Positions 7,627 to 50,481 are shown, counted from the first letter of the stretch. The stretch: DNA of 64,000 nucleotides from Nitrospirota bacterium (GCA_963710375.1 CAVPZX010000005.1:288001-352000), one strand, 5' to 3'. Notes: generated by a model from the letters alone, not told the origin. Translations and numbers: made by a program.

Positions 7627-9224
7627 AACTGAATATTGGTTGTGGAGCAGACTATCGAGAAGGATTTATTAATATAGATGGAAGGGATGATCTTGGGAAA
7701 GTGGACAAGGTCATCAATCTTAGTGAAGAATCCCTGCTGGATTACTTCAAAGAAAGGGAAGTGGACTATATACTTGCCCATGATTTTATTGAGCATCACT
7801 TCCATTGGCAAGCGGTGGAGTTGCTGAAGTGCTTTCATGCCCTCCTAAAGCCGGGAGGAGTGCTTGAGATGCGCCTCCCCGATTTTGAGTTTATTATTTC
7901 TTCTCCGGAGATGGCGTCTGAGCCTAAAATCACCCTCCTCTTCGGTGGGCAGGATATGCCGCAGGGCGAGGCAGACCCGACTTCCAGGAAGCGGTTCCCT
8001 GAATTTTTCTGCCACAAGTACTCATATACAAAAGCAACTATGAAACGAGAGCTTGAAAAAGCCGGATTTCTTGTAACGAGGATTGAGCAGGAAGGCACTA
8101 ATTTTGTGATAAAGTCAGCTAAGCAGCCCGCCACCATAAAAGAAACATCTTCAATGATGCTCCCGGAAATGAATAGCTTACCACATATGATCAATAAGTC
8201 TGTTTCTGGTAAAATCAATACCATGAATATCCTGGTTTCTTCAACAAGGCAGTGGAATCCGGGCGACGAATTTATTCTTATGGGTGTCCGCAATCTTTTC
8301 GAAGAGGCGCTTGGACCAGTGGGAATAAATTGGGTATTGTATGACAGGAACCCGGATCTGTTTGTTGACGGATTCTCCACTCATCAGCGAAAAGAGACAA
8401 TTTGGGGGAATTCATATCACCACGATTCGCCCGAATGCTTTAATTTGGCCCTGGTGGCTGGGACTCCTGAGTGGATGGGCAGGCCCCTGGAGGGTTTCTA
8501 TAGCACGGTCAGGAGGGGGCGCCTGCCTCTTTATATTATTGGGGCGGGATATATAGATGCCCCCATAGTTTTTTCAGAAGATGAAATGTACTGCCTTAAG
8601 AACACACTTAAGTTAGCGATTACGAGGGATGAATATGCCTCTCGTGCCCTGAATGAAATTGGTGTGCAACATGAAATACTGCCATGCCCGGCCCTGTTTG
8701 CTTCAACATGGGAGAGCGTCCCTCACGTCGTTAAAAAAATAGGCTTCATTATCCAAACCAACAAGACCGTTAATCAAAAAGTAACTGAGGAGCTATCGTA
8801 TGCGTGCGCTCATACGGTCAACCAATTAAGGAAGAAGGGGTTTGAGGTCGATGTCGTTTGTCATTATATAGATGAGTTCGTGGAATTTACAAAGGTTCTT
8901 TCACCTGTCAGATATTCATACGATTCACTCGACTATATCGATATGATAGGCAGTTATGACCTCGTGCTCTCAACGCGCCTGCACGGCGCAATATTGGCCA
9001 ATTCCATGGGCAAACCGGCAATAATGCTCAACAATGATGATTCAAGGTGCACGGGCGCAGCAATGCTCTTCCCTTTTATTTATGTTTCAACCCCTGAGAA
9101 TATAATCAACGATGTCATTGCCTTTGATCCGAAGAATGCCGAGCAGCTTGTCCAATGGAAGGCCGGTATAAAAGACAGGTATCTATCTTTATTAAGGGAA
9201 GCCATTTCGCACGGTATCGAGTAA
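7623..9224 (+). CDS. Fusion of a SAM methyltransferase-like domain and a polysaccharide pyruvyltransferase-like domain
   Basis: N-terminus KLNIGCG, HDFIEH, LKPGG..PD. C-terminus NPGDEFI, TRDEYA, PCPA, STRLHGAILA. Confidence 0.8.
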   Translation: MKLNIGCGADYREGFINIDGRDDLGKVDKVINLSEESLLDYFKEREVDYILAHDFIEHHFHWQAVELLKCFHALLKPGGVLEMRLPDFEFIISSPEMASEPKITLLFGGQDMPQGEADPTSRKRFPEFFCHKYSYTKATMKRELEKAGFLVTRIEQEGTNFVIKSAKQPATIKETSSMMLPEMNSLPHMINKSVSGKINTMNILVSSTRQWNPGDEFILMGVRNLFEEALGPVGINWVLYDRNPDLFVDGFSTHQRKETIWGNSYHHDSPECFNLALVAGTPEWMGRPLEGFYSTVRRGRLPLYIIGAGYIDAPIVFSEDEMYCLKNTLKLAITRDEYASRALNEIGVQHEILPCPALFASTWESVPHVVKKIGFIIQTNKTVNQKVTEELSYACAHTVNQLRKKGFEVDVVCHYIDEFVEFTKVLSPVRYSYDSLDYIDMIGSYDLVLSTRLHGAILANSMGKPAIMLNNDDSRCTGAAMLFPFIYVSTPENIINDVIAFDPKNAEQLVQWKAGIKDRYLSLLREAISHGIE

Positions 9225-10800: not shown

Positions 10801-10986
10801 ATACTTGACCGGATAAAAGGAAGAAAAGAGCATTTCTTCCCTTTAGAACTTCTCGAAAACCAGTTCAAGGCGTTGGAAGCGCCTCAAAATGCTATTACTG
10901 CGCAGATTCGCAAGGCGCCTGAAGAGATATGCTCGGAACTTATCGGTCAACTTGTAAGCAAAGGATTTGTTTTTATGCCCTCCTGA
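10801..10986 (+). pseudogene. C-terminal fragment of a gluconokinase-like gene
   Basis: Translates as ILDRIKGRKEHFFPLELLENQFKALEAP..., matching the GntK R..HF.P..LL.SQF..LE.P motif. The N-terminus is absent. Confidence 0.6.
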
Positions 10987-11061
10987 AGCCGGGAGGAGTG
11001 TTTTAGATGCGCCTCCCTGATTTTGAGTTTATTATATCTTCTCCGGAGATGCCGTCTGAGC
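10971..11061 (+). repeat. Degenerate 91-bp direct copy of 7833-7923
   Basis: About 7 mismatches in 91 bp by eye, including a GAG>TAG change in the original frame. Confidence 0.9.
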
Positions 11062-11280: not shown

Positions 11281-12457
11281 ATGAAAATATCTATTGATTT
11301 CAAAATATTATGGGATAGCTTCGATGAGTGTCCGGACTCAGATGTTGACCGCACAGAGCCTTTAAAATCATGCATTCATAGCGGCAATGCCGGAGATATT
11401 ATTTATTCCCTGCCGACGGTAAAAGAGTTGGGCGCCAGCCATTATGTGATAAATCTATATTCTCAACCAGAAGGCGGGTGGCGAAAAATGGATTATTCCA
11501 CTGCCAGGTCATTGGCCTCCCTTTTATTGGTACAGTGTTATATCAAGAGAGTAACGATTGTGTCCAGCAATCTCCCCCTTGAATCCGTTCAACCTAAAAA
11601 TTGAGAACATAGACTTTAATCTTGACAAGTTCCGCCTGCAGGATTGGCGCAAGCATCATTTGGCAATATGCCATTCTATGGCGTTTGGGCTTTACGTGAA
11701 TTTGTATAAAAAATGGATCGACTTAGGTGAGGATTTGCCGACCGGGGATTATGTTGTTGTTTCGTTTTCTCCCCGCTATCGTTCATTAACGAGGGAGTTC
11801 TGGATTGATGTCTTGTCCGGGCTTGACAAAGTCGTTGCAATTGGAGTCCCCCAGGAATTTTATTGTATGCAAGGCATTACCGCTGACTTTGTCACATGTT
11901 CAAACATGCTCGAAATGGCACGCATTATCGGTGGAAGCCGTCTGTTTATCGGCAATCCAGGCTTGACGTATGCCATTGCCGAAGGGCTAAAAGTGCCAAG
12001 AATTGTTGAAATGTCTGCAGAATTTCCTAATGCCTACCCCATAGGGCGGTCCGGATATCTGGCTCCGAATTCTGTTACAGAGGCAAGGAATTTAATCCAG
12101 AATCTATTATCTGATTCATCAAGGGACAACCTCCTTTACCGTAATGAAACCCTTGTACGCAATGTCCTGAAACTTGAAGAGGAACTAGGCAACAAGAATG
12201 ACCGTATCAGCGATCTTGAAGCTCAAATTGGCAATCTCGACGTAAACTCTTCTAACCTGGCAAGAGAACTTCGCCAAAATGATGAGACACTGCAAGCCAT
12301 CTACACATCCCATGGATGGAAACTCCTCTCGCTTTACTACCGGATACGGGATCGCGTACTCCCCGCAAACAGCATGAGGAGGAACGCAGTGAAATTCCTC
12401 TGGAATCTCCCTAAACATGACAGCAAATCGGCAAAAGACAAGGGAAGAAGTGAATAG
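11281..12457 (+). pseudogene. GT9/heptosyltransferase-like protein with C-terminal coiled coil; split by a +1 frameshift at about 11596-11600 (possibly a sequencing error)
   Basis: HSGNAGDIIYSLP in one frame. DFNLDKFR...FIGNPG...AIAEGLKVPRI, a coiled coil and SHGWKLL in the next. The junction is an A5 run. Confidence 0.6.
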
Positions 12458-15400
12458 GGCTGACTTGAAAGCTATCGCGTTTTATCTGCCCCAATTCCAT
12501 CCCATTCCCGAAAACGACCAATGGTGGGGCGAGGGTTTTACAGAGTGGATCAATGTTAAAAAAGCAAAGCCGCTCTTTGAAGGCCATTGGCAGCCCCGTA
12601 TTCCCGCTGACCTTGGATATTACGACCTCCGTGATCCCCAGGTGCGGCGTGAGCAGGCCAGGCTCGCTAAGACGTACGGTCTTCACGGGTTTTGCTATTA
12701 CTATTATTGGTTCAACGGCAAAAAACTCCTCGACTTTCCATTGCAAAAAGTCCTGGAAAGCGGAGAGCCTGATTTCCCATTTTGCATGTGCTATGCGAAT
12801 GAAAACTGGACCAGGGCATGGGATGGACTGGAACAGGATATATTAATAAAGCAGGAGCACAGTCCTGAGAATGATCTGCGTTTTATTCATGACATCATCC
12901 CTATCCTGAGGGACCCGCGGTATATTAAGGTAAATAATAAACCTTTGTTACTGGTTTACAGGGCCCACCTTTTCCCGGACCCGCGAAAAACTGCAGAGTT
13001 ATGGCGTGCAGCAGTAAAAAGTGCGGGGCTGGACGACCTGTATCTCTGCAAGTGTGAAGCTTTTGGAGATTATGTGCCTCCTGAGGAAATTGGGTTTGAC
13101 GCGAATGTGGAATTCCCTCCGCTTGGCGTAAGGGAGATTCCGAGGCTGAGCGAATATGAGGAGCGTATAAGGACATCGCAGCCTCTTGTCAGCGGTTACG
13201 TCTATGATTATGAAACTGCTGCGCACGTGATTATGAGCCGGAAGTGGCCCGATTACAGGCTGTTTAGGGGTATTATGCTCGGATGGGATAACACGGCACG
13301 GCGGCGCGAGGGACCAACTATTTACCATCATTTCTCACCCGAGGTTTATGAAGAATGGCTTGCCTTTATTTCCAAACAGTCGGTGCAACAACATCTGCAA
13401 GAAGAGAGGATCGTCTTTATCAATGCGTGGAACGAATGGGCTGAGGGGACCTACCTCGAACCTGATCAGAAATACGGATTGCGTTGTCTAGAAGCAACGA
13501 AGAGGGCAATAGAATCGGCAGAGATGATACAGCATAGGGGCGCCCGTATCGGGGATCTGAAAACGTACGGCGGTAAACTGGCAGAGGTCCTGTGGTATAG
13601 AGACGCCCGTATCGGGGATCTGGAGACGCACACCAATAACATGGCCGCTCATATTACTAATCTTGAGGCTGTGATAACGGACAAAGATATGCATATTACT
13701 CATCTTGAGGCTGCGATAACGGACAAAGATATGCATATAGGGAATCTTGAGGCTGCGATAACGGACAAAGATATGCATATAGGGAATCTTGAGGCTGCGA
13801 TAACGGACAAAGATTTGCATATAGGGCAACTTGCTGCATCTTTAGGCGAAAAAGAGGCTTATATAGAGCTTATCCATTCGGGGCACGGCTGGAAACTTCT
13901 AAACAAGTATTTCCGGATGCGCGATAAACTTTTGCCTGTCGGCTCTAAAAGAAGAACTGCGGCAAAGGTGCTTTTTAGGTTGCCATGGTTGATTTCGAAA
14001 GAGAATGCCGATAAAGCCATACAGTATGTCAAAAAATATGGTCTTAAAGCCTTTCTATTAAAGTCCAAGGAAAGAGTAATTATAGACGTTGATAATCCCT
14101 ATCAACAATGGATGGATAAGAATGAACCTAATCCGATTGAACTGAAAAAGCAGAGAGAAGTAAAATTTTCTTATGAACCAAAAATAAGTATAATTGTGCC
14201 GACCTACAATACACCGGAGAATCTTTTGAAAGATATGATCGAGTCGGTTCTGGATCAATCCTATTCTAATTGGGAGTTCTGTATTGCAGATGGGAGTATG
14301 CATGATTCACTCACAAAAGAGGTTTTAAAAGAATATTCGAGGAAAGATTCAAGAATAAAAGTGTCGTTTCTTTCTGAAAATAAAGGCATAGCAGGAAATT
14401 CTAATGAGGCTTTGTCTTTAGCAAGCGGTGATTATATTGCCTTCCTGGACCACGATGATGAACTGAGTCCCGATGCCTTGTACGAAGTGGTTTCGCTCCT
14501 TAACGAGAAGCCTGAAACTGAATTCATTTACTCGGATGAGGACAAGATGAATGAAAAGGGAGAAAGATATGAGCCCCACTTCAAACCTGATTGGTCGCCG
14601 GACACATTCCGGAGCTATAACTATATTTGTCACTTCACAGTAATCAGGAAAGCGCTGGTGGATAAAGGTGGAGGTTTTCGTCCGGGGTTCGATGGCTCGC
14701 AGGATTATGATCTGTTCCTCAGGGCTACGGAAAGAACAAAGCATATAGAACATATACCAAAAATTCTGTATCACTGGCGAAGTGTAGGGGGTTCGGCAGC
14801 AGGCGATGTTACAGCGAAGACCTATGCTTTTGAAAGCGCGAAAAAGGCCCTGAGGGAGCACTTGGAGAGGGTGGGTCTGCACGGAGAAGTGCAGGACGGG
14901 CCTTTCCTGAGGTCCTACCGGACGACATACAGAATCGAGGGGAGTCCGTTGGTATCCATTATCATTCCGACCCGCGACAAAGTGGATCTGCTGAAGACAT
15001 GCCTTGAATCCGTTGCGCAGCTTACATCTTACCCGTCATACGAAATAGTAGTGATTGACAACCAGAGCGAGAGTCATGAGACGTTCCGCTATTACGATGA
15101 GTTGAAGGAAGCTGGACGAGTGCGGCTGCTGCAGTACAGCGAGCCGTTCAATTTTGCGGCGATCAACAACTATGCTGTAAAAGAAGCGAAAGGCGACCAT
15201 CTGCTCTTCTTGAACAACGATACCGAGGTTATCACTCCTGACTGGATTGAACAAATGCTTATGTACTCACTCAGGAAAGATATCGGGGCCGTTGGTGCTA
15301 AACTGTATTATCCCGATGGCTCAATCCAGCATGCAGGCGTAATTGTTGGTCTTGGCGGGGTAGCGGGACATTCACATAAGTATTTTAGCAGAGCATCCGC

Positions 15401-15770
15401 AGGTTATTTCAGCAGGCTGGAGATTGTACAAAACCTGAGTGCAGTGACGGCGGCGTGCATTATGGTCCGCCGGGATGTATTTGATGAAGCAGGCGGATTC
15501 GATGAAAGCTTTTCCCATGCCTTTAACGATGTTGATTTATGCTTGAAAATCAGACAAAAGGGGTATCTGATAGTTTTCACGCCCTATGCGGAGCTTTATC
15601 ACCACGAATCAAAAACAAGAGGGTATGAGGATTCGGCTGAAAAGCAGGAACGCTTTAAAGGGGAGATCGCACTTTTCAGACAGAAGTGGAGACATTTTCT
15701 GGAACAGGGCGACCCATACTACAATCCTAACCTGACCCTCGATAAAGAAGATTTCTCGATAAAGCTATAA
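12450..15770 (+). CDS. Multidomain protein: GH99-like/WbsX domain, coiled coil, two GT2 domains
   Basis: IAFYLPQFHPIPENDQWWGEGFTEW...NAWNEWAEG, then heptad repeats, then ISIIVPTYN..LDHDD and VSIIIPTRD..LNNDTE. Probable GTG start at 12450 (ORF open from 12417). Confidence 0.92.
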   Translation: MNRADLKAIAFYLPQFHPIPENDQWWGEGFTEWINVKKAKPLFEGHWQPRIPADLGYYDLRDPQVRREQARLAKTYGLHGFCYYYYWFNGKKLLDFPLQKVLESGEPDFPFCMCYANENWTRAWDGLEQDILIKQEHSPENDLRFIHDIIPILRDPRYIKVNNKPLLLVYRAHLFPDPRKTAELWRAAVKSAGLDDLYLCKCEAFGDYVPPEEIGFDANVEFPPLGVREIPRLSEYEERIRTSQPLVSGYVYDYETAAHVIMSRKWPDYRLFRGIMLGWDNTARRREGPTIYHHFSPEVYEEWLAFISKQSVQQHLQEERIVFINAWNEWAEGTYLEPDQKYGLRCLEATKRAIESAEMIQHRGARIGDLKTYGGKLAEVLWYRDARIGDLETHTNNMAAHITNLEAVITDKDMHITHLEAAITDKDMHIGNLEAAITDKDMHIGNLEAAITDKDLHIGQLAASLGEKEAYIELIHSGHGWKLLNKYFRMRDKLLPVGSKRRTAAKVLFRLPWLISKENADKAIQYVKKYGLKAFLLKSKERVIIDVDNPYQQWMDKNEPNPIELKKQREVKFSYEPKISIIVPTYNTPENLLKDMIESVLDQSYSNWEFCIADGSMHDSLTKEVLKEYSRKDSRIKVSFLSENKGIAGNSNEALSLASGDYIAFLDHDDELSPDALYEVVSLLNEKPETEFIYSDEDKMNEKGERYEPHFKPDWSPDTFRSYNYICHFTVIRKALVDKGGGFRPGFDGSQDYDLFLRATERTKHIEHIPKILYHWRSVGGSAAGDVTAKTYAFESAKKALREHLERVGLHGEVQDGPFLRSYRTTYRIEGSPLVSIIIPTRDKVDLLKTCLESVAQLTSYPSYEIVVIDNQSESHETFRYYDELKEAGRVRLLQYSEPFNFAAINNYAVKEAKGDHLLFLNNDTEVITPDWIEQMLMYSLRKDIGAVGAKLYYPDGSIQHAGVIVGLGGVAGHSHKYFSRASAGYFSRLEIVQNLSAVTAACIMVRRDVFDEAGGFDESFSHAFNDVDLCLKIRQKGYLIVFTPYAELYHHESKTRGYEDSAEKQERFKGEIALFRQKWRHFLEQGDPYYNPNLTLDKEDFSIKL
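13518..13631 (+). repeat. Imperfect 63-bp-period coding repeat (21 aa)
   Basis: CGCCCGTATCGGGGATCTG occurs twice, 63 bp apart (ARIGDL). Confidence 0.8.
13650..13826 (+). repeat. 42-bp tandem repeat, about 4.2 copies (14-aa di-heptad HIxNLEAAITDKDM)
   Basis: Units start at 13650, 13692, 13734, 13776, with a partial unit at 13818. Confidence 0.95.
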
Positions 15771-26348: not shown

Positions 26349-26364
26349 CCTTTTCCCGACAATG

Positions 26365-26546
26365 TGCAATTCAGACAGTAGATGAATCTCTGAAGCATTA
26401 GCGGAGTTTTGGAAACAGTTCTTGGCGAGTGAGCGTTAAACAGGAGCGAAACTGACCGAAGGGAATTTTGCGACTGTAGCGAGACGAGTCATAGAACTGT
26501 CAAAACGGAGCGTAGCGAAAGAGAGTCATCTACTGTCTGAATTGCA
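26365..26546 (+). mobile_element. 182-bp MITE-like element, family A copy 1
   Basis: 26-bp terminal inverted repeats TGCAATTCAGACAGTAGATGA(A/C)TCTC; non-coding; second copy at 53078-53259. Confidence 0.85.
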
Positions 26547-26633
26547 GTTCCCATAATACGTTATATTTGAAAAAGTGTTAAAATTATTAAAGTGTTTATA
26601 CTATGGCTTTTCTGCAGTGTGTGAGATTATTCC

Positions 26634-27608
26634 ATGCCTAAAGTGAGCATTATCATTGTCAATTATAACGGAGAGCGGGTACTTGGGGATTGTCTCAGGG
26701 CTGTTGAGGGACAGACCTTCAGGGATTTCGAAATTGTTCTCGTAGACAACGCCTCCACTGATGGTTCACAGTCACTGGCCGGACATCTTAACTTTATCTC
26801 TTTGCCGGAGAACCGGGGTTTCACAGGAGGAAATATAGAGGGACTGCGGCATTGCGCCGGGGATTATATCGTCCTTCTTAACAATGACACGGAGCCGGAA
26901 AGGGGATGGCTTCAGGCCCTTGTGGATGCTGCAGATGCCCATCCGGAAGTCGGCATCTGCGCTTCGAAGCTGATCAAACACGGCACTAATCGTATTGACA
27001 GCGCAGGAGACCTCTTTTCCAAAGCCTTGAAAGGGTTTAAGCGCGGCGAGGGTGATGTTGACAATGGTTTTAACCGGGAGGAGTACATTTTCGGCGCCTG
27101 CGCAGGAGCGGCGCTGTACAGGCGTTCAATGCTGGATGAAATAGGCTTCCTGGATGAGGACTTTTTTTTGATTCACGAAGATACTGATTTGAACTGGAGG
27201 GCGCAGCTTGCAGGCTGGAAGGTATTGTATGTCCCATCTGCTGCGGTATATCATAAAGTAAGGTCAACTATAGGTCAGATGAGCGATCTTGCTGTTTACT
27301 ATACACTGAGAAATGCCGTATTTGTAAGGATAAAAAATATCCCCTTCCGTGTATTCCTGCGCTGCCTGCCTTCTTTTCTTGCCGGAATGCTGACGGAGTT
27401 TTTTTTGTTCGGCATAAGACACAGGCGTCCGGGGCTGTATATCAAGGCGAAAAGTGATGCTCTGCGACTGCTCCCGCGGATGTTAAAAAAAAGAACTGAC
27501 ATTATGAAGAAACGTAAAGTGTCTGATGCGTATATACTTTCGTTAATGACCTCTGTATGGGAGAAGAAATTCCTGCGGGCCAAATTCAAGAGATTGCTCT
27601 ATGGTTAG
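26634..27608 (+). CDS. GT2 glycosyltransferase (rhamnosyltransferase-like)
   Basis: IIVNYNG, VDNASTDGS, NRGF, LLNNDT, GACAGAALYRR, EDTDL. Confidence 0.9.
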   Translation: MPKVSIIIVNYNGERVLGDCLRAVEGQTFRDFEIVLVDNASTDGSQSLAGHLNFISLPENRGFTGGNIEGLRHCAGDYIVLLNNDTEPERGWLQALVDAADAHPEVGICASKLIKHGTNRIDSAGDLFSKALKGFKRGEGDVDNGFNREEYIFGACAGAALYRRSMLDEIGFLDEDFFLIHEDTDLNWRAQLAGWKVLYVPSAAVYHKVRSTIGQMSDLAVYYTLRNAVFVRIKNIPFRVFLRCLPSFLAGMLTEFFLFGIRHRRPGLYIKAKSDALRLLPRMLKKRTDIMKKRKVSDAYILSLMTSVWEKKFLRAKFKRLLYG

Positions 27609-28515
27609 CGTTATTATTCTCACTCTCAACGCGGGTGAAAGATTGCGTTCCCTCCTGGAGGCCCTGCTGCCGCAAACGGTGCCGTTGGAGCTAATGGTGG
27701 TCGATTCCTCTTCAACAGACAGTACACTTTCTATTGCTAGAGCTTACGGGGCAAAAGTCGCAACAGTGCAGAGGAGTGATTTCGATCATGGCGCTACCCG
27801 AAATTTCGGTATCCTCCAGACTTCCGGAGACATTGTGGTATTCCTAACGCAGGATGTGGTTCCTGTGGGTAGAGATACGATGGAGAGGCTTATCGCGCCT
27901 TTTTATGCCGATGAACTGGTAGGATGTGTTTATGGAAGGCAGCTGCCTTCCCCCGAAGCCACGGTTTTTGCCGCACACTCACGGATTTTCAATTATGGCC
28001 CTACTTCACTGGTAAAGTCCCGGGAGAACGGCGAAAGGGGAATAAAGGTCCCTTTTCTCTCTAATTCCTTTGCCGCATACAGGAGAAAAGCACTTGAAGA
28101 AATTGGTCTTTTTAAAGAAGGCCTTATCTCAACAGAGGACACATACGCAGGAGCCAGGATGCTCATGGCCGGTTACAGGATCGCCTACGCATCGGACGCT
28201 GCGGTATACCATTCACACAACTATACTCTCATGGAAGAATTCCGGCGGTACTTCGATATAGGGGTCTTTCACCGGAGGGAAAAATGGATTATTGAAACCT
28301 TTGGAAGGGCGGAGGACGAGGGGAGCAGATTTCTACTGTCTGAGTTGCGGTATATAGCCAGGGAGGCTAAATATGGTCTTCTGCCCGAATTTTTGGCCCG
28401 GAATAGTTTAAAATACCTTGGCTTCTCCCTTGGACGGCAGTATGAAAAACTGCCTTTGAAAATAATTAATAAAATTGAGCAAGAACAAAAATTATTGGGA
28501 AAAAAAACAGGTTAA
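27601..28515 (+). CDS. GT2 rhamnosyltransferase (RfbN/WbaN-like); C-terminus probably +1 shifted near 28471
   Basis: DSSSTD, FDHGATRN, FLTQD, YGRQLP, SNSFAAYR, HSHNY, RYFDIG. The expected LS...YW tail (LSKNKNYW) lies in the adjacent frame. Confidence 0.85.
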   Translation: MVSVIILTLNAGERLRSLLEALLPQTVPLELMVVDSSSTDSTLSIARAYGAKVATVQRSDFDHGATRNFGILQTSGDIVVFLTQDVVPVGRDTMERLIAPFYADELVGCVYGRQLPSPEATVFAAHSRIFNYGPTSLVKSRENGERGIKVPFLSNSFAAYRRKALEEIGLFKEGLISTEDTYAGARMLMAGYRIAYASDAAVYHSHNYTLMEEFRRYFDIGVFHRREKWIIETFGRAEDEGSRFLLSELRYIAREAKYGLLPEFLARNSLKYLGFSLGRQYEKLPLKIINKIEQEQKLLGKKTG

Positions 28516-28580
28516 GGTTGAGGTTGAGGTTAAGACTGGCGGTTCTTAGTTTTTCTTAACCTTAACCTTAGCCTTAACCT
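28509..28580. repeat. Microsatellite hairpin, GGTT(A/G)A hexamer family
   Basis: AGGTTAAGGTTGAGGTTGAGGTTAAG, spacer, CTTAACCTTAACCTTAGCCTTAACCT. Confidence 0.92.
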
Positions 28581-28590
28581 ATATGTGGAT

Positions 28591-30046
28591 ATGCGTATCA
28601 ATAATGGATATAAAGAAACTGCCGGTATAGCGGGCGCTTGCCTCGCTGGACATTGCATCCTTTTATCTGTCCCTGTTTCTTGCTTATTACGCGCGCAAAT
28701 TTCTAAATACTGTTTTCCCGGGTCTCATACCTCTGGAATTCGGCCTGCGCCACTTTGTCCTTTTCTGGTGGATGCCGGTCATCTTCATCCTCGTCATCGC
28801 ATACGAAGGGCAATTCACAAAGAGGATGCCTTTCTGGGACGAAGTAAGAGAATTGATAAAGGCAATTACCGTGGCCGTCGTTGTTATCTTTGCGGTCACT
28901 AGTCTCGGAAAGTTCACCTACAAAATATCCAGGCTTACTTTCATCCTGCTATACATGTGCAGCATAGTTGTCTTTCCTTTTATGCGGCTTATGGGGAAGA
29001 AGATGCTATACCGGATGAATATCTGGAGGGAAAACCTTATTATCATCGGCGCGGGAAGGGCTGGAAAGGAAATTGCCAGGGGCATCGATAGCGAAAGTCA
29101 TATGGGGTACAATATCATCGGATTCCTCGACGACGATCCGGACAAGATAGGCCGGACAATAGAGATCAATAACAAGGAACTCAAGGTCTTCGGCAAGGTA
29201 AAGAATTTCAGGAAATTCCTCTCGCTGATGGATGTTCCAACGGTGATTATTGCAATTCCCTCCCTCATTGTGGAGGAGCTCACGAAGCTGACTGAGGATG
29301 TTCAGAAATATACCAGGCGCGTCCTTCTCGTGCCCGACCTGAAAGGCATTGCCCTGGTAAACACCGAACTCGAGAACCTGTCCGGGCAGCAACTGTTTAT
29401 GCTGAAGATCAACAACAACCTGAAGTCGGACTTCAATAAATTTGTCAAGAAGTGCTTCGACGTTGTTTTCTCCATTCTCTTGTTGCCTTTCCTTTTCGTT
29501 ATGGTGGTCATCTTTGGGATTTTGATACGCGCGGATTCCAGGGGAACTGTTTTCCTAATGCAGGACAGGATCGGCAAGGGGGGGAAGCTTTTCAAATGCA
29601 TAAAGTTCAGGACCATGTTCTCGAACGCTGACGAAATATTGGACAACTATCTTGAAAAGAACGAAGAGGTCAGGGCTGAGTGGAGCCGGTACAAAAAACT
29701 TCGTGATTATGATCCGCGCGTAACACGGGTGGGCAGGTTTCTGAGAAGGACCTCCCTGGACGAACTGCCCCAGATTTTCAATGTGCTTGCCGGCGATATG
29801 AGTTTCGTGGGCCCGCGCCCCTATCTGCCTGAGGAAGAGGAGGAGATACGGGGATATTCCGATCTGATCTTAGTCGCCAGCCCCGGGATCACCGGGCTCT
29901 GGCAGGTCTCGGGCAGAAACATACTGGATTTCGATGAAAGGGTGAGGCTCGCCGTATGGTACGTCCTGAACTGGTCCCTCTGGCTCGACATAGTCATCCT
30001 TTTCAAGACTATCAGGGTAGTCCTAAACAAGGAGGGAGCGTATTAA
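28591..30046 (+). CDS. wbaP: WbaP-type undecaprenyl-phosphate sugar phosphotransferase, copy 1; +1 frameshift at about 28633
   Basis: [47 protein letters not shown]. The N-terminus MRINNGYK aligns with the paralogue if one G is removed. Confidence 0.88.
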
Positions 30047-30048
30047 AA

Positions 30049-30188
30049 CAGGTTAAGGCTAAGGTTAAGGCTGAGAAAACAGAAGGGCTTATTAAGTCAG
30101 GTTAAAGGCTAAGGCTACGAAAAACTAAGGACTGTCAGTCTTAACCTCAACCTCAACCTCAACCTTAGCCTGCCTTTTTAAGGTTAAG
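30049..30188. repeat. Nested GGTTAA/TTAACC-family arms upstream of the four-helix-bundle gene
   Basis: Purine arms at 30049-30075, 30098-30119 and 30178-30188. Pyrimidine arm at 30140-30172. Confidence 0.9.
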
Positions 30189-30206
30189 AAAACAAAAAAT
30201 ACACAT

Positions 30207-30572
30207 ATGTATAAAACTTTTAAAGAGATGCCAGTGTGGCAAAAGGCAATTGATGCTGCTGAAATAGTGCATGAGCTTACGATAAAATTACCTAGAAAAG
30301 AAGATTACGGATTTACTTCACAAATAAGAAGGTCTGCTCTAAGTATATCGGCGAATATAGCAGAAGCATTTGGAAGAAATCATACTATGGACAAAATAAA
30401 TTTTTATTATATGGCGAGAGGCTCTTTAACTGAGACTCAAAGCCATTTAGAATACGGTAAAAGAGTTGGCTATATTAATTCCCAAAAAGCTGATGAACTC
30501 GAAAAAGTTTTTTGCGATATTCACAACGCTATAAATAAAGTAATTTTAACCTTGCGAGGACCAAACAAATGA
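30207..30572 (+). CDS. Four-helix-bundle protein (23S rRNA IVS-protein/Avd-like family)
   Basis: F....VWQKA......LP..E.YGFTSQIRRSALSISANIAEAFGR.......FYYMARGSLTETQSHL; AT-rich. Confidence 0.93.
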   Translation: MYKTFKEMPVWQKAIDAAEIVHELTIKLPRKEDYGFTSQIRRSALSISANIAEAFGRNHTMDKINFYYMARGSLTETQSHLEYGKRVGYINSQKADELEKVFCDIHNAINKVILTLRGPNK

Positions 30573-30589
30573 CTGGTCGGCTTTCCCCC

Positions 30590-30619
30590 TTAACCTTAAC
30601 CTTAACCTTAACCTTAACC
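30590..30619. repeat. (TTAACC)5 tract downstream of the four-helix-bundle gene
   Basis: Five perfect hexamers starting at 30590. Confidence 0.95.
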
Positions 30620-30627
30620 TATTCTTT

Positions 30628-30840
30628 AGGGGTGTCTGAATGACAGTTCTTTTTTACATTTTAATCTTAACCTTAACCTTAGCCTATTCTTTAGGGGTGT
30701 TTAAATGACAGTTCTCTTTTACAATTTAATCTTAACCTTAACCTTAACCTTAACCTTAACCTATTCTTTAGGGGTGTCTGAATGACAGTTCTTTTTTACA
30801 TTTTAATCTTAACCTTAACCTTAGCCTTAACCTATTCTTT
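30628..30840 (+). repeat. Triplicated rmuC RBS and start region (65/77/71-bp units)
   Basis: AGGGGTGT..AATGACAGTTCT...TTAATC(TTARCC)nTATTCTTT at 30628, 30693 and 30770, with n = 3, 5, 4. Confidence 0.93.
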
Positions 30841-32182
30841 GGCGAGACTCGCCAAGTTAGAAGGAATGGCGAAGAGTGCTGAGGCAATTGTGGGGGAACT
30901 CAGGCAACAGATCCAGCAGAAGGAACAGGTTGCAAGTCAATTAAGGGACGTGCTTGATAGCGAGCGGCATCAGAGGATAGAGACGGTGACGCGTCTTGAG
31001 GAATCGCAGAAGCGGTTGGAAGATTCCTATAGGAGCCTTGAGCAGCAGAAAGAGCTTATCGAGGTAATGAAAAAAGAGATAACCGATACCTTCAGCGTGC
31101 TTTCCGGTGCTGCGTTGAAAAGCAGCAGTGAGGATTTTCTGAGACTCGCCTCGGAGAACCTGGAGAAGATCGTTGCCGATACAAAAGGGAAGCTCGGTGA
31201 GCACCAGGCCGCTATGGACGGTACGATCAAACCCCTTCATGAAATGCTGAAAAGATACGAGCAGCAACTCAGGGACATAGAGGAGAACAGACACAAAAGC
31301 TTCGGCAGTCTTACAGAGCAGCTCAGGTCACTTGCCGGGATGCACGAGCAGTTGCAGCGCGAGACAAACAGCCTTGTTACAGCGCTGAGAAGGCCCAAGA
31401 TCAGCGGCTCATGGGGCGAACTGGGGCTCAGGAGAGTTGTGGAACTTGCTGGCATGACGGCTTATTGCGATTTCTACGAGCAGGAATCGGTTTCGACTGA
31501 TTCGGGACGTCTGAGGCCGGACATGATTGTGCGGCTTCCAAACGGGAGGGAGATCGTGATTGATGCCAAAGCCCCTGTCGACGCTTTTATGGGCATGGTC
31601 TCAGCTGCTACGGAAGAAGAGAGGAAGAAGGCCATAGCGAATTACATCGGCAGTGTGAGGAACCATATGAATATGCTCAGTTCGAAGGCATACTGGGACC
31701 AGTTTGACCGGTCCCCCGAAATAGTGGTCATGTATCTGCCGGGCGAGTCCTTTTTCAGCGCAGCTATTGAGTATGATCACAAGCTGATCGAGGACGGCAG
31801 TGCAAAGAAGGTCATTCTTGCCACCCCTACCACCTGTATCGCATTGCTGAAAGCCATTGCTTACGGCTGGCAGCAGGAACAGGCAGCCAAGAGCGCTCAG
31901 GAGATCGGCAAACTGGGCAAGGAATTGTACGAGCGCTTTTCCGTCATGCTTGAGCATTACGCTAAGACAGGCCTCGCTATCCGCAAGGCGGTGGAATCCT
32001 ACAACGATGGCGCCAGGTCGGTGGAATCGCGTCTCATGCCTTCATTAAAAAAGTTTAAAGAACTCGGTGTTTCAAGTTCCAGAGACATAGCTCCCCCAGC
32101 TGAAATAGACCAGACAGCAAAAACCATAGAGCACCTTGCCCTTGAGTTTCAGGAAGAAGCTTCTGAAGATGAGAAGTTGTGA
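30782..32182 (+). CDS. rmuC: DNA recombination protein RmuC
   Basis: N-terminal TM, coiled coil, GSWGE..L.RVVE.AG, RPDMIVRLP...IVIDAK, YLPGES, ATPTT. Confidence 0.93.
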   Translation: MTVLFYILILTLTLALTYSLARLAKLEGMAKSAEAIVGELRQQIQQKEQVASQLRDVLDSERHQRIETVTRLEESQKRLEDSYRSLEQQKELIEVMKKEITDTFSVLSGAALKSSSEDFLRLASENLEKIVADTKGKLGEHQAAMDGTIKPLHEMLKRYEQQLRDIEENRHKSFGSLTEQLRSLAGMHEQLQRETNSLVTALRRPKISGSWGELGLRRVVELAGMTAYCDFYEQESVSTDSGRLRPDMIVRLPNGREIVIDAKAPVDAFMGMVSAATEEERKKAIANYIGSVRNHMNMLSSKAYWDQFDRSPEIVVMYLPGESFFSAAIEYDHKLIEDGSAKKVILATPTTCIALLKAIAYGWQQEQAAKSAQEIGKLGKELYERFSVMLEHYAKTGLAIRKAVESYNDGARSVESRLMPSLKKFKELGVSSSRDIAPPAEIDQTAKTIEHLALEFQEEASEDEKL

Positions 32183-32254
32183 AGATGAGAAGTTGCGAAT
32201 GTGGGTCTTGGGAAGTGCCTGCTCAACTTCACAACTTCACATCTTCTCATCTTC
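32165..32254. repeat. Microsatellite hairpin, GAAG(A/T)TGN 8-mer family, between convergent rmuC and trpD
   Basis: GAAGATGA GAAGTTGT GAAGATGA GAAGTTGC, then TCAACTTC ACAACTTC ACATCTTC TCATCTTC. Confidence 0.9.
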
Positions 32255-32265
32255 TCTACCATGTC

Positions 32266-33991: not shown

Positions 33992-34076
33992 AGCAAAGCG
34001 CAAAGTGCAAAGGGCATAGCGTAAAAGGCAGCGGCTTTCTTTTTTACCCTATGCTCTTTGCTCTATGCCCTATGCT
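33992..34076. repeat. Microsatellite hairpin, NGCA(A/T)AG heptamer family
   Basis: AGCAAAG CGCAAAG TGCAAAG GGCATAG, then CTATGCT CTTTGCT CTATGCC CTATGCT. Confidence 0.9.
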
Positions 34077-35579
34077 TATTTTTCTCCTTCAAAAAAATCT
34101 ACAGTCTTCATCATCGCCATCGCCTTGTTGACTGTCTCGTAATATTCGTTCTCCGGAACAGAGTCGGCTACAAGGCCGGCTCCGGCCTGTACAAATATTG
34201 TATCATTTTTTATGATGAGCGTTCTTATGGTAATGCACATGTCCATGTTGCCCGAATAGCTTATATATCCGACTGAACCGGCATAGGGACCCCGCTTTGT
34301 GGGCTCCAGTTCTTCTATGATTTCCATGGCCCTGACCTTTGCAGCACCGCTGACGGTGCCGGCAGGAAAGCAGGCTTTAAAAACATCAAAGGCATCGAGT
34401 CCTTTTCTTAGAATGCCCTCAACGTTTGATACAAGGTGCATTACATGGCTGTAGCGTTCCACGTTCATTACTTCAGTCACTTTGACCGAGCCGATTTGTG
34501 CGACTCTGCCGACATCGTTCCTTCCCAGATCTACAAGCATTATATGCTCTGCTATTTCTTTGGGATCTTTTTTCAGGTCTTCCTCAAGCGCTCTGTCGGC
34601 ATCTTCGGTCTCTCCCCTTTTACGGGTCCCGGCAATGGGCCTAAGCGTTATTTTGTCGCCTTCCAGCCTGACCAGTATTTCAGGTGAAGAGCCGACAAGC
34701 TGAACATCGCCGGTGTCGAGGTAGTACATGTACGGCGAGGGGTTTATAACCCTGAGGGCACGGTATAGATTAATGGGGTGTATGGGGGCATGTGTCTCAA
34801 ACCGCTGCGAAAGGACCACCTGCAGTATATCGCCTGACAGTATGTATTCTTTGGCCTTTACTACAGCGTCCATAAAGCCTTCTTTTGTGAAATTGGAAGA
34901 GAAGTTATCAGAAAAGGCTAAAGGCGAATGGCTAAAGGCTAAAGGGGAAAGTGCCTGCCGCCTTTTGCCCTTTGCCCTTTGCCTTTAGCCCAAGTTTTTT
35001 TATGATTTTATCTATCCGTTTGCCGGCATCCTCGTAGGTCTTTTCGATATTCTTGTTATCTACGTGTACGTTCGATACGATCTTTATAGTTTGCCTGAGG
35101 TTATCAAATATAAGGATCGTATCAGTGAGCATCAGAAAAATATCGGGTATGTCCAGCGCCGGTTTAGGGGAATCAGGCACCCGCTCAAAGAACTTGACCA
35201 CATCATAACCTATATAGCCTACAAACCCGCCCGAGAACCGGGGAATCCCTGCTACTTCGACAGGGGTAAACCGCGATAATATATCTTTTATAACAGAAAG
35301 CGGATCAGCTGTTTCCAAGTGGGAGGTTTTTCTGCGCTCCCGGACCGTTACTTGTCGGCCCGAACAGCTAAAGGTCATGGCCGGATCTATGCCGAGGAAG
35401 GAGTAGCGGGCCCACTTCTCGCCGCCGGTAACGCTCTCCAAAAGAAAGGACGGCTTCTTGCCGAGCTTGAGAAATGCGCTTACCGGAGTCTCTACGTCGC
35501 CCAGTATTTCCTTGTAAACAGGAATAAGATTGCCCTGCTGTGCTAATGACTTGAATTCATTGAGGTCCGGGAATAACAT
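34076..35579 (-). CDS. trpE: Anthranilate synthase component I, split by a +1 frameshift inside an inserted heptamer hairpin
   Basis: N-half [30 protein letters not shown]-half [34 protein letters not shown]. Confidence 0.93.
34913..34990. repeat. Heptamer microsatellite hairpin inside trpE
   Basis: AAAGGCT AAAGGCG AATGGCT AAAGGCT AAAGG, then CCTTTTG CCCTTTG CCCTTTG CCTTTAG CC. Confidence 0.92.
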
Positions 35580-35625
35580 TTTTTAGAATAGCATAATTTC
35601 CCATAACAAAGCATGCCAACAGCCA

Positions 35626-35759
35626 AAACGTGAAACGTGAAAGGTGAATAGTGAATAGTGAACGGCTCAAGGCAAAAAACAAACCAAAAAATCTTTAGCT
35701 TTTAACTATTCACCATTCACGTTTCACGTTTTTAACCATTCACCATTCACCTTTCACTA
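35626..35759. repeat. Microsatellite hairpin, GTGAA(A/T)N heptamer family, with a doubled right arm
   Basis: AACGTGAAACGTGAAAGGTGAATAGTGAATAGTGAA, then two TTCAC-based arms at 35702-35731 and 35733-35759. Confidence 0.9.
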
Positions 35760-37359: not shown

Positions 37360-38786
37360 TACCATCTGCGATCTTCAGGGAGTATGATATAAGGGGTGTG
37401 GCAGGTAAAGACCTTGCCGGAGATACCGCGGTCCTTATCGGAAAGGCGTTCAGCTCACTTGTAAAATCTTTTATTCCCAAAGCAAAACAGGTGAGCGTAG
37501 GAAGAGATGTAAGGCTGAGTTCTGAAGAGCTTGCTGCCGGGCTTATCAAAGGAATCGTGTCTTCCGGCATCGATGTATATGACATCGGGGTCTGCCCTAC
37601 ACCGGTCCAGTATTTCTCACTCCATCATCTGGATCTGGATGGCGGTATAATGGTTACCGGCAGCCATAATCCGCCGGAATATAACGGCTTCAAGATCAGT
37701 ATAGGGAAAGATGCCATTTATGGCGGAAACATTCAAAAGCTGGAAGAGATAATTAAAAGGCAGGATTGGACAATTTCGGAAGAAGACGGCAGAGTTAAGC
37801 ACTGTAATATAATTGACCCATATAAAGAATATATGCTGAAACAGTTTTCATATCTTAATAATGCACGGTTCAGGAGGGTCAGGGTAGTCATAGATGCCGG
37901 AAACGGCACTGCAGGCGCTATTGTGCCCGAAATCCTGGCCGGAATGGGCTGTGAGGTTGTACCGCTTTATTGTGAACCTGACGGAAGGTTCCCCAACCAT
38001 CACCCTGATCCTACGGTGGTTGAATACATGCAGGACTTGATTATGGAAACGAGGAGGTCAGGAGCGGATATCGGCGTTGGTTATGATGGTGATGCCGACA
38101 GGATTGGAGTAGTTGACAGAGAAGGGACTATTATATGGGGAGATCAGATATTGATCATCCTGAGCAAGGAAGTGTTGAAGGAAAACCCGGGGGCCAAGGT
38201 TATCGGCGATGTAAAGTGCTCGCAGGCGATGTTTGATGAGGTGAAGAAACACGGCGGCATTCCCATTATGTGGAAGACCGGGCACTCTTTAATAAAACAA
38301 AAGATGAAGGAAGAGGGGGCCCTTATCGCAGGAGAATTCAGCGGACATATTTTTATTGCTCATAACTATTTCGGCTACGATGACGCACTCTACACCACCT
38401 TCAGGATTATAGAGATCATGAAGAAAACAGGAAAGGACATAAAAGGGCTTGTTTCTGATGTAGCCAGGATGTCATACACTCCTGAAATCAGGCGCGAATG
38501 CCCGGAAGACATGAAAAAAGAGGTTGTGGGCAATGTGGTGTCCCGCCTCCTTGCCTATTCAAAAGACGGTAATGCTCCTTATAGGATTATAGACGTCAAT
38601 ACGCTTGACGGGATCAGGATTTTATTTGAAAAAGGGTGGGGATTGATACGGACCAGCAACACGCAGCCTGTAATCGTCATGAGAGCCGAGGCAGATGATG
38701 AGGAACATTTAAACCAGTACACAAGTTTTTTGGAAAATGTATTAGAGCAGGCAAAGGTAGAGGTAGAGGTAAAGGTAAAAGGCTAG
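37356..38786 (+). CDS. algC: Phosphomannomutase/phosphoglucomutase
   Basis: FREYDIRG, TGSHNP, DGDADR, GEFSGH, RTSNT. Confidence 0.93.
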   Translation: MIPSAIFREYDIRGVAGKDLAGDTAVLIGKAFSSLVKSFIPKAKQVSVGRDVRLSSEELAAGLIKGIVSSGIDVYDIGVCPTPVQYFSLHHLDLDGGIMVTGSHNPPEYNGFKISIGKDAIYGGNIQKLEEIIKRQDWTISEEDGRVKHCNIIDPYKEYMLKQFSYLNNARFRRVRVVIDAGNGTAGAIVPEILAGMGCEVVPLYCEPDGRFPNHHPDPTVVEYMQDLIMETRRSGADIGVGYDGDADRIGVVDREGTIIWGDQILIILSKEVLKENPGAKVIGDVKCSQAMFDEVKKHGGIPIMWKTGHSLIKQKMKEEGALIAGEFSGHIFIAHNYFGYDDALYTTFRIIEIMKKTGKDIKGLVSDVARMSYTPEIRRECPEDMKKEVVGNVVSRLLAYSKDGNAPYRIIDVNTLDGIRILFEKGWGLIRTSNTQPVIVMRAEADDEEHLNQYTSFLENVLEQAKVEVEVKVKG

Positions 38787-38845
38787 CAATGTATAAAATA
38801 ATAATTATGTTATCAACCTTGATCTTAACCTTAGCCTTAACCTGC
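38747..38845. repeat. Hexamer microsatellite hairpin overlapping the PMM C-terminus
   Basis: GCAGGCAAAGGTAGAGGTAGAGGTAAAGGTAAA (encodes AKVEVEVKVK), then TCAACCTTGATCTTAACCTTAGCCTTAACCTGC. Confidence 0.8.
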
Positions 38846-40251: not shown

Positions 40252-40257
40252 AGGACA

Positions 40258-40337
40258 AAAACCGAAGGTGCGAAGATGTGAAGATGCGAAGATGAGCAAA
40301 ATCCCTCCCAACTTCTCAACTTCTCAACTTCGGTTTT
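40258..40337. repeat. Microsatellite hairpin, GAAG(A/T)TGN family
   Basis: AAAACCGAAGGTGCGAAGATGTGAAGATGCGAAGATG, then CAACTTCTCAACTTCTCAACTTCGGTTTT. Confidence 0.88.
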
Positions 40338-40349
40338 TGCGGAGGGTGA

Positions 40350-41697: not shown

Positions 41698-42645
41698 ATG
41701 AGCAAACGAATATTGGTTACCGGAGGCGCAGGGTTCCTCGGGTCACATCTTTGCGAGAAACTTGTGAACGAAGGAAACGAAGTCCTTTGCGCAGACAACT
41801 TTTATACAGGGCGCAGGGCGAATATCAGGCACCTTTTAAATAATCCCTATTTTGAAGTCATGCGGCATGACGTCTGTTTCCCTCTGTATGTAGAAGTCGA
41901 TGAAATATACAATCTTGCCTGTCCTGCCTCTCCGGTACACTACCAGTTCGATCCGGTACAGACAACTAAGACATCGGTCCATGGTGCGATAAACATGCTG
42001 GGATTGGCAAAGAGGGTCAAGGCAAAAATACTCCAGGCATCGACGAGTGAGGTCTATGGAGATCCGAACATTCACCCTCAGTGCGAGACGTACTGGGGTA
42101 ACGTCAATCCAGTAGGGATTCGTTCATGTTACGATGAAGGGAAGCGCTGCGCCGAAACACTCTTTTTTGATTATTACCGCCAACATAAGCTCAGAATAAA
42201 AGTGGCGCGGATCTTCAATACATACGGTCCCAGGATGTACCCGGACGACGGCCGGGTGGTGAGCAATTTTATCATCCAGGCGTTGAAAGGAGAGGATATC
42301 ACAGTATATGGCGACGGGAGCCAGACCAGAAGTTTTTGTTATGTTGACGACCTGATTGATGGGCTTGTCAAACTAATGGACAGCCCTGATGATCTCACGG
42401 GGCCGGTGAATCTTGGGAACCCGGTAGAATTCACTATTCTTGAACTGGCGGAGAAGGTGATCGCAATGACAGGCTCCAGGTCAAAGGTGGTTTATAAACC
42501 TTTGCCCCAGGATGATCCGATGCAAAGACAGCCTGACATAACATTGGCAAAAAAGGAACTGGGCTGGCATCCGGTGATACAGTTCGAAGAAGGTCTGAGA
42601 AGGACAATCAATTACTTTGAGACAATATTGAAATCCAATTATTAG
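41698..42645 (+). CDS. UDP-glucuronate decarboxylase (UDP-xylose synthase)-like
   Basis: [45 protein letters not shown]. Confidence 0.92.
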
Positions 42646-42659
42646 CCCACTTTATGGAA

Positions 42660-42863
42660 AAATTTTATACAAGGAGCAGTCAGGCCACAGTGCTTCACTC
42701 AACTGCCACCCCAAAGGTCTGCGACCTTTCGGGGACCCTATATTCTCGCAAGGCATCCAGCCTTGCTCCGAGGCTATGACAGCCTGTGTCACCATCCTTG
42801 GTGTCACTTAGGCTGTCAAAGTCCGCTCAGCACCATGTCCAGCCTGCTCCTTGTATAAAATTT
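42660..42863. mobile_element. 204-bp MITE-like element, family B
   Basis: Perfect 20-bp terminal inverted repeat AAATTTTATACAAGGAGCAG; several internal hairpins. Confidence 0.75.
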
Positions 42864-42891
42864 ATGAATAATATGGGCTGGATACGGCAAT

Positions 42892-48119: not shown

Positions 48120-49004
48120 ATGAAAGGTATCATTCTGGCAGGCGGAAGCGGCACGAGACTTTACCCGGTGACTTTGTCGGTGTGCAAGCAGCTTCTGCCT
48201 GTTTACGACAAGCCTCTGATTTACTATCCGCTTTCGGTGCTTATGCTTGCAGGCATAAGGGAAATACTGATCATCTCAACACCCCAGGATCTGCCGAGAT
48301 TCAGGGAAATATTTAATACCGGCTCACAATTGGGATTGAGTTTTTCATATAAGGAGCAGTCCCGGCCGAATGGCATTGCCGAGGCTTTTTTGCTGGGAGA
48401 AGAGTTTATCGGCAGCGATGACGTATGCCTTATATTGGGAGATAATATCTTTCATGGCCACGGTTTTACCGATTTGCTGAATAAGGCAGTGAGTGATATA
48501 ACGGCCCGGAGGGGTGCGACCGTATTTGGTTATTATGTCAACGATCCCGAGCGGTACGGAGTAATCGAATGTGACAAAAAAAACAAGGTCCTTTCAATTG
48601 AAGAAAAGCCCAAAATGCCCAAATCTAATTATGCTGTAACAGGGCTCTATTTTTATGATAACAATGTTACTGAGATTTCGAGGAAGATTAAGCCTTCCCG
48701 GCGGGGAGAACTGGAGATAACAGATGTTAACAAGGAGTATCTGAAAGAAGGAAACCTGAGGGTCGAGTTCCTCGGAAGGGGTTACGCTTGGCTTGATACA
48801 GGCACCCACGAAAGCCTTCTTGAAGCAGGCGAATTTATCTCCACCATAGAAAAACGTCAGGGATTGAAGATAGCCTGTATAGAGGAAATTGCTTACCAGT
48901 TGGGCTATATAGATGGCGATCAGCTTTTAAAGCTCGCTAAACCTCTTAAAAAGAACGGATACGGGCAGTATCTTTTAAAAATATTGAAAGAAGAGAGGCT
49001 ATAG
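48120..49004 (+). CDS. rmlA: Glucose-1-phosphate thymidylyltransferase
   Basis: [42 protein letters not shown]. Confidence 0.97.
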
Positions 49005-49079: not shown

Positions 49080-49088
49080 GTATTTATC

Positions 49089-50479: not shown

Positions 50480-50481
50480 GC

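Follow-up and report, generated by a model that had tools for sequence, protein, structure and literature searches.

What do two related hairpins do on either side of a gene? The 64,000-nucleotide (nt) stretch of DNA analysed here, called the window throughout, comes from a Nitrospirota bacterium (GCA_963710375.1, CAVPZX010000005.1:288001-352000), and in it a wbaP gene, wbaP copy 1, lies between two hairpins that share a spacer and are inverted relative to each other. A first-pass annotation had proposed that whole hairpins are copied as units and that the pair could make wbaP invertible or mobilisable. We favour, by a modest lean, the reading that the hairpins are non-autonomous mobile elements dependent on a neighbouring four-helix-bundle protein, hairpin 2 being a local inverted copy and the pair not serving as wbaP-inverting sites. 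The genome that holds the window (G000; 3.19 Mb, 98.8% complete) was set beside those of five relatives of its genus (G001, G002, G003, G005 and G009).

Probable copying of the hairpins

28505..28582, no strand assigned: hairpin 1, with a purine arm of AGGTT(A/G) units (28508-28533), a 22-nt spacer (28534-28555) and a pyrimidine arm (28556-28580).
30085..30179, minus strand: hairpin 2, the inverted counterpart of hairpin 1, within a 95-nt insert, with a short arm at about 30099-30118, a spacer at 30119-30140 and a long arm at 30141-30172.

Both hairpin strings recorded in the first-pass annotation are present in the sequence, and the spacer match that it reported, 28534-28555 against 30119-30140 on the minus strand, is indeed 19/22. 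The AAAACAGG leader that it singled out near 28504, 30045 and 53419 is found there, but it is a general end of the family and not a special mark of these loci: it stands at 16 of 162 hexamer arm ends, and CAGG at 106 of the 162. Tested along with 78 other hexamer hairpins, spacer 1 has its best ungapped match in hairpin 2, the next best reaching 16/22; the two spacers are reciprocal best local matches, and the match rises above background in that none of 20,000 shuffles of spacer 2 equals its score. A genome search on both strands yields no third copy within four mismatches of either spacer. The match is real but unexceptional, because 19 of 3,081 hexamer hairpin pairs in the genome score as high or higher. 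Together the hairpins, 1.6 kb apart, constitute a 61-nt inverted repeat, 89% complementary, that flanks wbaP, and the longest perfect stretch that they have in common is 24 nt. As RNA, hairpin 1 folds into a single long stem (-45 kcal/mol); the short arm of hairpin 2 is degenerate, and the hairpin is nested in a larger structure. An Rfam scan of 26000-54300 gave two tRNAs only and no family for the hairpins.

We consider it extremely improbable that the spacers came to match by chance or by convergence from A/T-rich spacers and decayed repeat units. While CTTAGTTTT-like stretches do recur in other hexamer spacers, and a score of 30 is reached by 31 of 14,073 cross-family pairs, the reciprocal best match, its lead over the next spacer and the shuffles all speak against such an origin, as does the restriction of both hairpins, so close together, to G000 among the six genomes. 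Thus, the pair is very probably related by copying, and hairpin 2 has likely arisen locally, as an inverted copy of the element that hairpin 1 also represents. Two other candidate signs of ancestry were rejected: spacer 1 as a relic of the 3' end of a four-helix gene (best score 18-19, within background), and the flanks of the insert as proof that an older hairpin-1 site was the template (the motifs on both flanks are ends common to the family, at 6 and 9 of the 162).

Beyond this locus, a periodicity scan of G000 returned 164 array pairs, some of them redundant, and a word-based census recovered 197 hairpins in 11 word families, with arms made of tandem 6-8-base words (81 hexamer, 44 GTGAATA, 19 AGGCAAT and 16 octamer hairpins, and others). 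The purine arm comes first in all 197, and the reverse arm order within 130 nt was met in no case. Fifty-four of the 197 fall into 15 spacer-sharing clusters, some of which extend across five contigs; the cluster score of 33 is reached by 62 of 4,455 same-family pairs vs 7 of 14,073 cross-family pairs, with the wbaP pair, at a score of 31, standing outside the 54 clustered hairpins, and with two pairs that may belong to larger duplications. Spacer-sharing pairs are direct in 46 cases and inverted in 42. Similar pairs are about 4-6 times commoner at short range (7/100 within 20 kb vs 81/4,355 beyond, p=0.003; 3/30 within 5 kb, p=0.02). Hairpins therefore appear to be copied whole, as the first-pass annotation had supposed, and the shared spacers strongly suggest such copying. 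In the window itself, its clearest case is a GTGAATA hairpin at 35625-35757, whose spacer recurs in copies of either orientation, spread over at least five contigs.

With gene contexts assigned by a crude caller of open reading frames (ORFs), 117 hairpins lie between co-directional genes, 21 between convergent and 20 between divergent ones, 13 of the 197 are inside ORFs, and 26 are far from any called gene; the first arm starts at a median of 6 nt from the upstream stop. Selection on one RNA strand of the stems was looked for and not found: G-U pairs number 93 against 72 A-C (p=0.12), folding energies divide 54 to 61, and such a lack of strand preference is as expected of a DNA-level element. 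The shared spacers run with transcription in 6 cases and against it in 9. Hairpins of other words occupy gene junctions of the window at 2029-2137, 32165-32256, 33993-34076, 34913-34991, 38749-38843, 40256-40339, 48991-49084, 50475-50559, 51526-51608 and 60747-60873, and a hexamer hairpin at 53419-53499 separates tRNA-Gly (53340-53415) from tRNA-Cys (53509-53580).

The four-helix-bundle protein and its repeat word

Hairpin 2 is situated in the left arm of a gene cassette that the first-pass annotation had missed:

30045..30084, plus strand: left (purine) arm of the cassette with the AAAACAGG leader, overlapping the wbaP stop; the same arm is present in G002 and G005.
30067-30084, plus strand: first copy of an 18-nt imperfect direct repeat, inside the left arm.
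30180..30197, plus strand: second copy of the 18-nt repeat, 15/18 identical to the first (3 mismatches), closing the 95-nt insert.
30207..30572, plus strand: four-helix-bundle protein of 121 amino acids (TIGR02436 / PF05635), a relative of XCC0516 and, weakly, of Avd.
30588..30620, plus strand: right (pyrimidine) arm of the cassette, 5.5 TTAACC units.

The protein scores 112 bits with TIGR02436 (cut-off 24) and 115.7 with PF05635 (cut-off 33.8), and matches 2GSC (XCC0516, five chains) at E=1.6e-16; its match to the Avd model NF033474 is weak (E=5.5e-4, 20 bits vs a cut-off of 80). XCC0516 is a toroidal homopentamer according to PMC4990558, and PMC10053308 describes PF05635 as Avd-like. Across G000, G002 and G005, the nonsynonymous rate (dN) of the gene is 0.025-0.028 vs a synonymous rate (dS) of 0.18-0.31 (dN/dS about 0.08-0.15), and by this measure it is under purifying selection. 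No match to the protein was seen in 50,697 phage records; in G000, no reverse transcriptase (PF00078) was matched and no GxxExxY/PF13366 protein was found.

Six PF05635 genes of G000 score above the cut-off, each beside a different word. In five of the six, the gene follows a purine arm and precedes a pyrimidine arm; the gene beside GGACTGA is flanked, in the stretch examined, by two arrays on the same strand. The association of protein and word also holds across a quick tree of 112 four-helix proteins over 119 columns, from which 13 rows had been dropped, namely five duplicates or orthologues (L037, L057, L059, L060 and L120) and eight loci without a tblastn match to the six proteins of G000. 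All 68 proteins flanked by AGG/AGA hexamers belong to one branch of 79 (Shimodaira-Hasegawa-like approximate likelihood ratio support 95), and none of the 33 outside it has the hexamer; most of the 79 were taken by similarity to the query (the best 80 of 165), the flank label being no selection criterion. This branch spans 15 phyla, 14 by database labels plus KSB1, and period-6 arrays accompany 73 of its 79 members, in 46 rows on both sides. In one genome, G137, an AGATTA sub-variant is found both in the flanks of the gene and in most of the dispersed arrays listed. Each four-helix paralogue of G000 has its own word, and the clade is linked to an AGGTTA-type hexamer both beside the gene and genome-wide.

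Genomes with a gene of this clade are enriched in dispersed hexamer arrays in two samples, with exceptions both ways; the counts are of array matches, which overlap and so do not give numbers of elements, the search patterns derive from G000, and related genomes are not independent. Among 121 Nitrospirota genomes, the four with the clade, from three families, rank 1-4 for four-unit hexamer matches (99, 24, 18 and 7), vs zero in 105 of the other 117 and a maximum of 6 (p=0.0016 without G000). In the class of G137 (101 genomes), four carriers have 167, 152, 40 and 3 matches, and 14 of the 97 non-carriers have some (p=0.004 without G137). Comparable relations are seen for other words in 21 near relatives, where the four with a GTGAA-flanked gene show 90-170 GTGAA matches and the rest at most 11, and the four with an octamer-clade gene show 7-30 octamer matches and the rest at most 3. 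As a separate observation, genome G231 has long perfect AGGTTA runs at the start of a contig (C1:4-95) and near its far end (C1:3957586-3957647) with no cognate gene; these are probably one array split by circularisation.

The position of wbaP in relatives and in sequencing runs

The genes on either side of the hairpins, all on the plus strand, are these:

27601..28549, plus strand: family-2 glycosyltransferase; the assembled frame stops at 28515.
28591..30046, plus strand: wbaP copy 1 (TIGR03022, above cut-off), listed start 28772, with orthologues in place that are 74-87% identical.
30596..30833, plus strand: three tandem copies of the rmuC start region with a 65-77-nt period, each closing in a hexamer array.
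30782..32182, plus strand: rmuC-like gene that does not reach the NCBIfam cut-off; a hexamer array encodes part of its hydrophobic N-terminus.

In G001, G002, G003, G005 and G009, wbaP occupies the same place before rmuC in the same orientation (in G001 split over two contigs), and the matched hairpin pair is present in none of them. What varies is the content of the junctions. At that of hairpin 1, where the contents are different in all five relatives, G002 and G003 have AGGT(T/C)AT-type heptamer hairpins, G005 an AGGCAAT hairpin, G001 an AGAGCA(A/T) hairpin, and G009 about two units and no hairpin. Between wbaP and rmuC, G002 and G005 have the arm, the four-helix gene and the arm, and the 95-nt insert 30085-30179 with hairpin 2 is confined to G000 in comparison with these two; G001 has a gene-less octamer hairpin, G003 an unrelated inverted-repeat element, and G009 nothing. 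Therefore, both matched hairpins are peculiar to G000 among the six genomes, and wbaP has not moved; the repeat word at one junction turns over between species.

Four sequencing runs from two studies (X1-X4), one of which may be the source sample, were consulted as assembled contigs, which drop rare variants. Among them, no inversion or deletion of 28.5-30.2 kb was seen. One X1 contig spans 26502-30618 in the reference arrangement with both hairpins included; hairpin 1 is bridged in X1, X2 and X4, and hairpin 2 by single contigs in X1, X3 and X4. Several apparent rearrangements were rejected. The skip 28528-30139 contains 36 letters of a different hairpin, the one at C2:89916. The joint 30083-28549 and the short skips that start at 30071-30079 either have sides of just 20-25 letters or include foreign ones, and 33 repeat letters are present in the opposite-strand joint 30582-30808. 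These joints and skips are best read as other hexamer hairpins placed on the wbaP-flanking arms.

The proposal that the inverted hairpins serve as sites of recombination by which wbaP is flipped or mobilised, and surface-polysaccharide synthesis thereby switched, has in its favour the long and largely complementary inverted repeat, the polysaccharide locus in which it lies and a second wbaP at 51619-53073; inverted repeats around part of a surface-polysaccharide locus are also what invertible promoter and gene segments of such loci display. Here, however, there is no linked recombinase and no second orientation was seen: gene order and orientation are the same in five relatives that do not have the pair and keep neither site, and the contigs of the four runs follow the reference. 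No recombinase gene was found in the window: every match to a tyrosine recombinase (five in the genome) or a serine recombinase (two) falls outside it, the nearest PF00589 match on the window's contig being 127 kb beyond the window and the PF00239 matches on other contigs, from where an unlinked enzyme might still act. Inverted and direct spacer-sharing pairs are equally common. Perfect identity of only 24 nt is close to the lower limit for homologous recombination; rare accidental flips of the RecA type could therefore still occur, and contigs could miss them. On balance, wbaP is very likely not a switch, and we give the flipping or mobilising of the gene by these hairpins very little credence.

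Two single-base features complicate the gene models of this region. An extra base at 28466 is missing in all three runs that cover it (3/3), and another at 28631 in all four (4/4). It is because of the latter that wbaP copy 1 is listed from 28772 in the window; without it, wbaP is open from 28591. In the run contigs, which lack the base at 28466, the glycosyltransferase frame stays open across hairpin 1's left arm and ends at a TAG within the spacer. The two extra bases, which cut short the glycosyltransferase and the N-terminus of wbaP, are likely assembly errors or strain differences, and assembly errors probably account for the apparent frameshifts.

Downstream, the start of rmuC is triplicated in G000 only and is single in G002 and G005; the depth of these pieces is raised in runs X1 and X4. 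The hydrophobic N-terminus of RmuC (30782-30850) is partly written by a hexamer array in G000 and G005, other leaders are present in G001, G003 and G009, and the rmuC start of G001 overlaps heptamer-like remnants; the repeat may have been domesticated as a membrane anchor of RmuC. The second wbaP (TIGR03022) is about 64% identical to copy 1 at the DNA level where the two align, and it too is preceded by a hairpin, here of the AGGCAAT word. Around the polysaccharide region, 26362-26547 and 53077-53262 are inverted copies, 97% identical and 26.5 kb apart, of a 186-nt element resembling miniature inverted-repeat transposable elements, which has 19 near-full matches in the genome and makes a longer and more perfect inverted pair than the wbaP hairpins. 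Other inverted-repeat elements at 53591-53775, 59922-60104 and 42644-42879 have 11, 30 and 6 near-full genome matches, respectively, and it is an element resembling 59922-60104 that fills the wbaP-rmuC junction in G003. Unrelated repeats of the window include a 42-nt tandem repeat (13608-13859) in a 1,117-residue ORF (12417-15770), likely a coiled-coil repeat, and a 94-nt direct repeat at 7830-7923 and 10968-11061 (91% identical, 3.1 kb apart).

Weighing the origin of the hairpins

The mechanism that we favour would begin with the four-helix protein forming a five-subunit ring like that of XCC0516, which would recognise single-stranded arrays of its own word in the way that Avd binds nucleic acid. 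Enzymes of host replication or repair would then place a copy of the hairpin at a gene junction close by whose sequence is already similar to the word. Copies that landed immediately after a stop codon would persist, since they leave the following ribosome-binding site intact. We picture the ring as an adaptor for host enzymes because it has no known catalytic site and no reverse transcriptase is at hand. That the protein acts in trans on gene-less hairpins is, in our estimate, about as likely as not. Several observations weigh against this reading. The passages of PMC4990558 consulted give no catalytic role for the four-helix family, and since no reverse transcriptase was found in the genome, an Avd-like retro route would be without its partner in G000. 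Neither excision nor new insertion within the strain was seen in the contigs of the four runs. The words AAGAATT, TGAATTT, AGTAAGC and GGAGAATC occur in G000 with no four-helix gene of their own among the six found. The 14 non-carriers with arrays in the class of G137 have up to 45 matches; no clade gene was found in G003 (100% complete), with its 81 three-unit hexamer matches, or in G001, with 55; and three of five carriers from other phyla have only 0, 2 and 6 four-unit matches. To these must be added the interdependence of kin, the G000-derived patterns and the quick tree with its few columns.

A passive origin would do without any dedicated protein. Here, the arms would matter in cis only, forming the stem of a cassette akin to an intervening sequence, which RNase III would excise from the transcript; gene-less hairpins would be footprints or deletion derivatives of such cassettes, spread by slippage and template switching, and hairpin 2 would have arisen from a nascent strand folding onto the right arm of hairpin 1, 1.5 kb away. 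The geometry of the insert fits a fold-back template switch well, in that it starts after the purine arm, is inverted and ends in the 18-nt direct repeat; the triplicated rmuC start indicates that arrays promote local rearrangement; and arrays do occur without the gene. There is also a precedent in the Coxiella 23S intervening sequence, with a 28-bp stem, heptamers before the ORF and cutting by RNase III, as given in PMC4990558. The start motif usual in the clade, ATGTAYAA, is present in 3 of 81 hexamer spacers vs 0 of 116 others (p=0.07; 32 of 2,000 shuffles), although this motif was chosen post hoc. The relic hypothesis nevertheless fails as a general test, the spacers being equally like cognate and other four-helix genes (means 17.0 and 17.0). 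Local fold-back leaves unexplained the spacer clusters spread over several contigs, the stems show neither a G-U excess nor a folding advantage of the sense strand, and a by-product does not predict one word per protein clade across 15 phyla. We regard it as rather unlikely, if well short of negligible.

Alternatively, the hairpins could be selected RNA elements, that is, processing or stabilising stems, each read by its four-helix ring as a repeat-reading RNA-binding regulator, with copying only secondary. Such a role would sit well with the 117 of 158 classified intergenic hairpins that lie between co-directional genes, so near the upstream stop, with the hairpin between the two tRNA genes and with the co-occurrence of gene and arrays, and a regulatory role has been proposed for the Beggiatoaceae TAACTGA repeats (PMC4679880). 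It is weakened because the stems have no strand bias and the junctions turn over: 20 hairpins lie between divergent genes, shared spacers run no more often with transcription than against it, the junction word differs between relatives, and G009 does without a hairpin. We accordingly rate selection on RNA as improbable.

Among described systems, mobile elements driven by a neighbouring gene have their closest likeness in the REPINs, hairpins of repetitive extragenic palindromic (REP) sequences, and their REP-associated tyrosine transposases (RAYTs). For these, PMC3337134 and PMC3116915 (Bertels and Rainey) report hundreds of extragenic hairpin doublets that a genome may divide among several groups, every group being found next to a low-copy gene of its own, with variable spacers, insertion into existing elements and an abundance that varies among relatives. 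Extragenic doublets and a partner gene per group are found in G000 too, save for the words that have no gene; a RAYT and REP palindromes are not. The arms here are tandem 6-8-base words in place of palindromic REPs, and the partner is a PF05635 four-helix bundle with no known catalysis, whereas RAYT is an HUH Y1 tyrosine transposase. No word-flanked RAYT was found in G000. The genome's only Y1 transposase-like gene (PF01797; G000:C2:220024-220350) has 24-nt inverted ends of its own, is 21 kb away from the closest hairpin and is not flanked by hairpin words. The set is best read as a REPIN/RAYT-like system in which the four-helix protein would stand in for the transposase.

Other comparisons capture part of the picture. 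The 23S rRNA intervening sequences (S23p; Coxiella, Leptospira) hold the same protein family in a stem loop, in Coxiella with tandem heptamers before the ORF (PMC4990558). As there, a PF05635 ORF lies between complementary arms, but the cassette is outside rRNA, between wbaP and rmuC, its gene shows purifying selection, and the genome also holds about 200 hairpins that contain no gene. The diversity-generating retroelements offer a likeness in Avd, which PF05635 resembles in the account of PMC10053308, and differ in the reverse transcriptase, which was not found in G000. The intergenic heptamers of Xanthomonas and Nostoc are likewise short tandem words near gene ends, with 70-75 inverted pairs per Xanthomonas genome, but the passages of PMC4692102 consulted give neither a link to four-helix genes nor spacer copying. 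The same holds for those of PMC4679880 on the TAACTGA repeats of Beggiatoaceae, which are short tandem words near gene ends and are direct, not hairpins. Titles and abstracts of the literature (few subscription journals; supplements outside the search) yielded no link between four-helix genes and such hairpins.

More broadly, and only tentatively, we suggest a widespread, so far undescribed kind of transposase-less mobile DNA, in which each clade of Avd-like rings would read one 6-8-base word and drive the copying and replacement of gene-less hairpins, the wbaP pair being a recent local hop with an 18-nt target repeat. If true, this would explain both an orphan protein family and the long-unexplained intergenic hexamer and heptamer repeats of many phyla. 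The wbaP pair itself is one ordinary event, with no phase-variation switch, and an entry to a larger system, in which the presence of a four-helix gene is accompanied by tens to hundreds of dispersed hairpins of its word. That system bears on two open questions: the function of PF05635 and the origin of bacterial 6-8-base intergenic repeats. A ring that bound nucleic acid in a word-specific way, and of which nature offered variants for many words, could also prove a useful tool.

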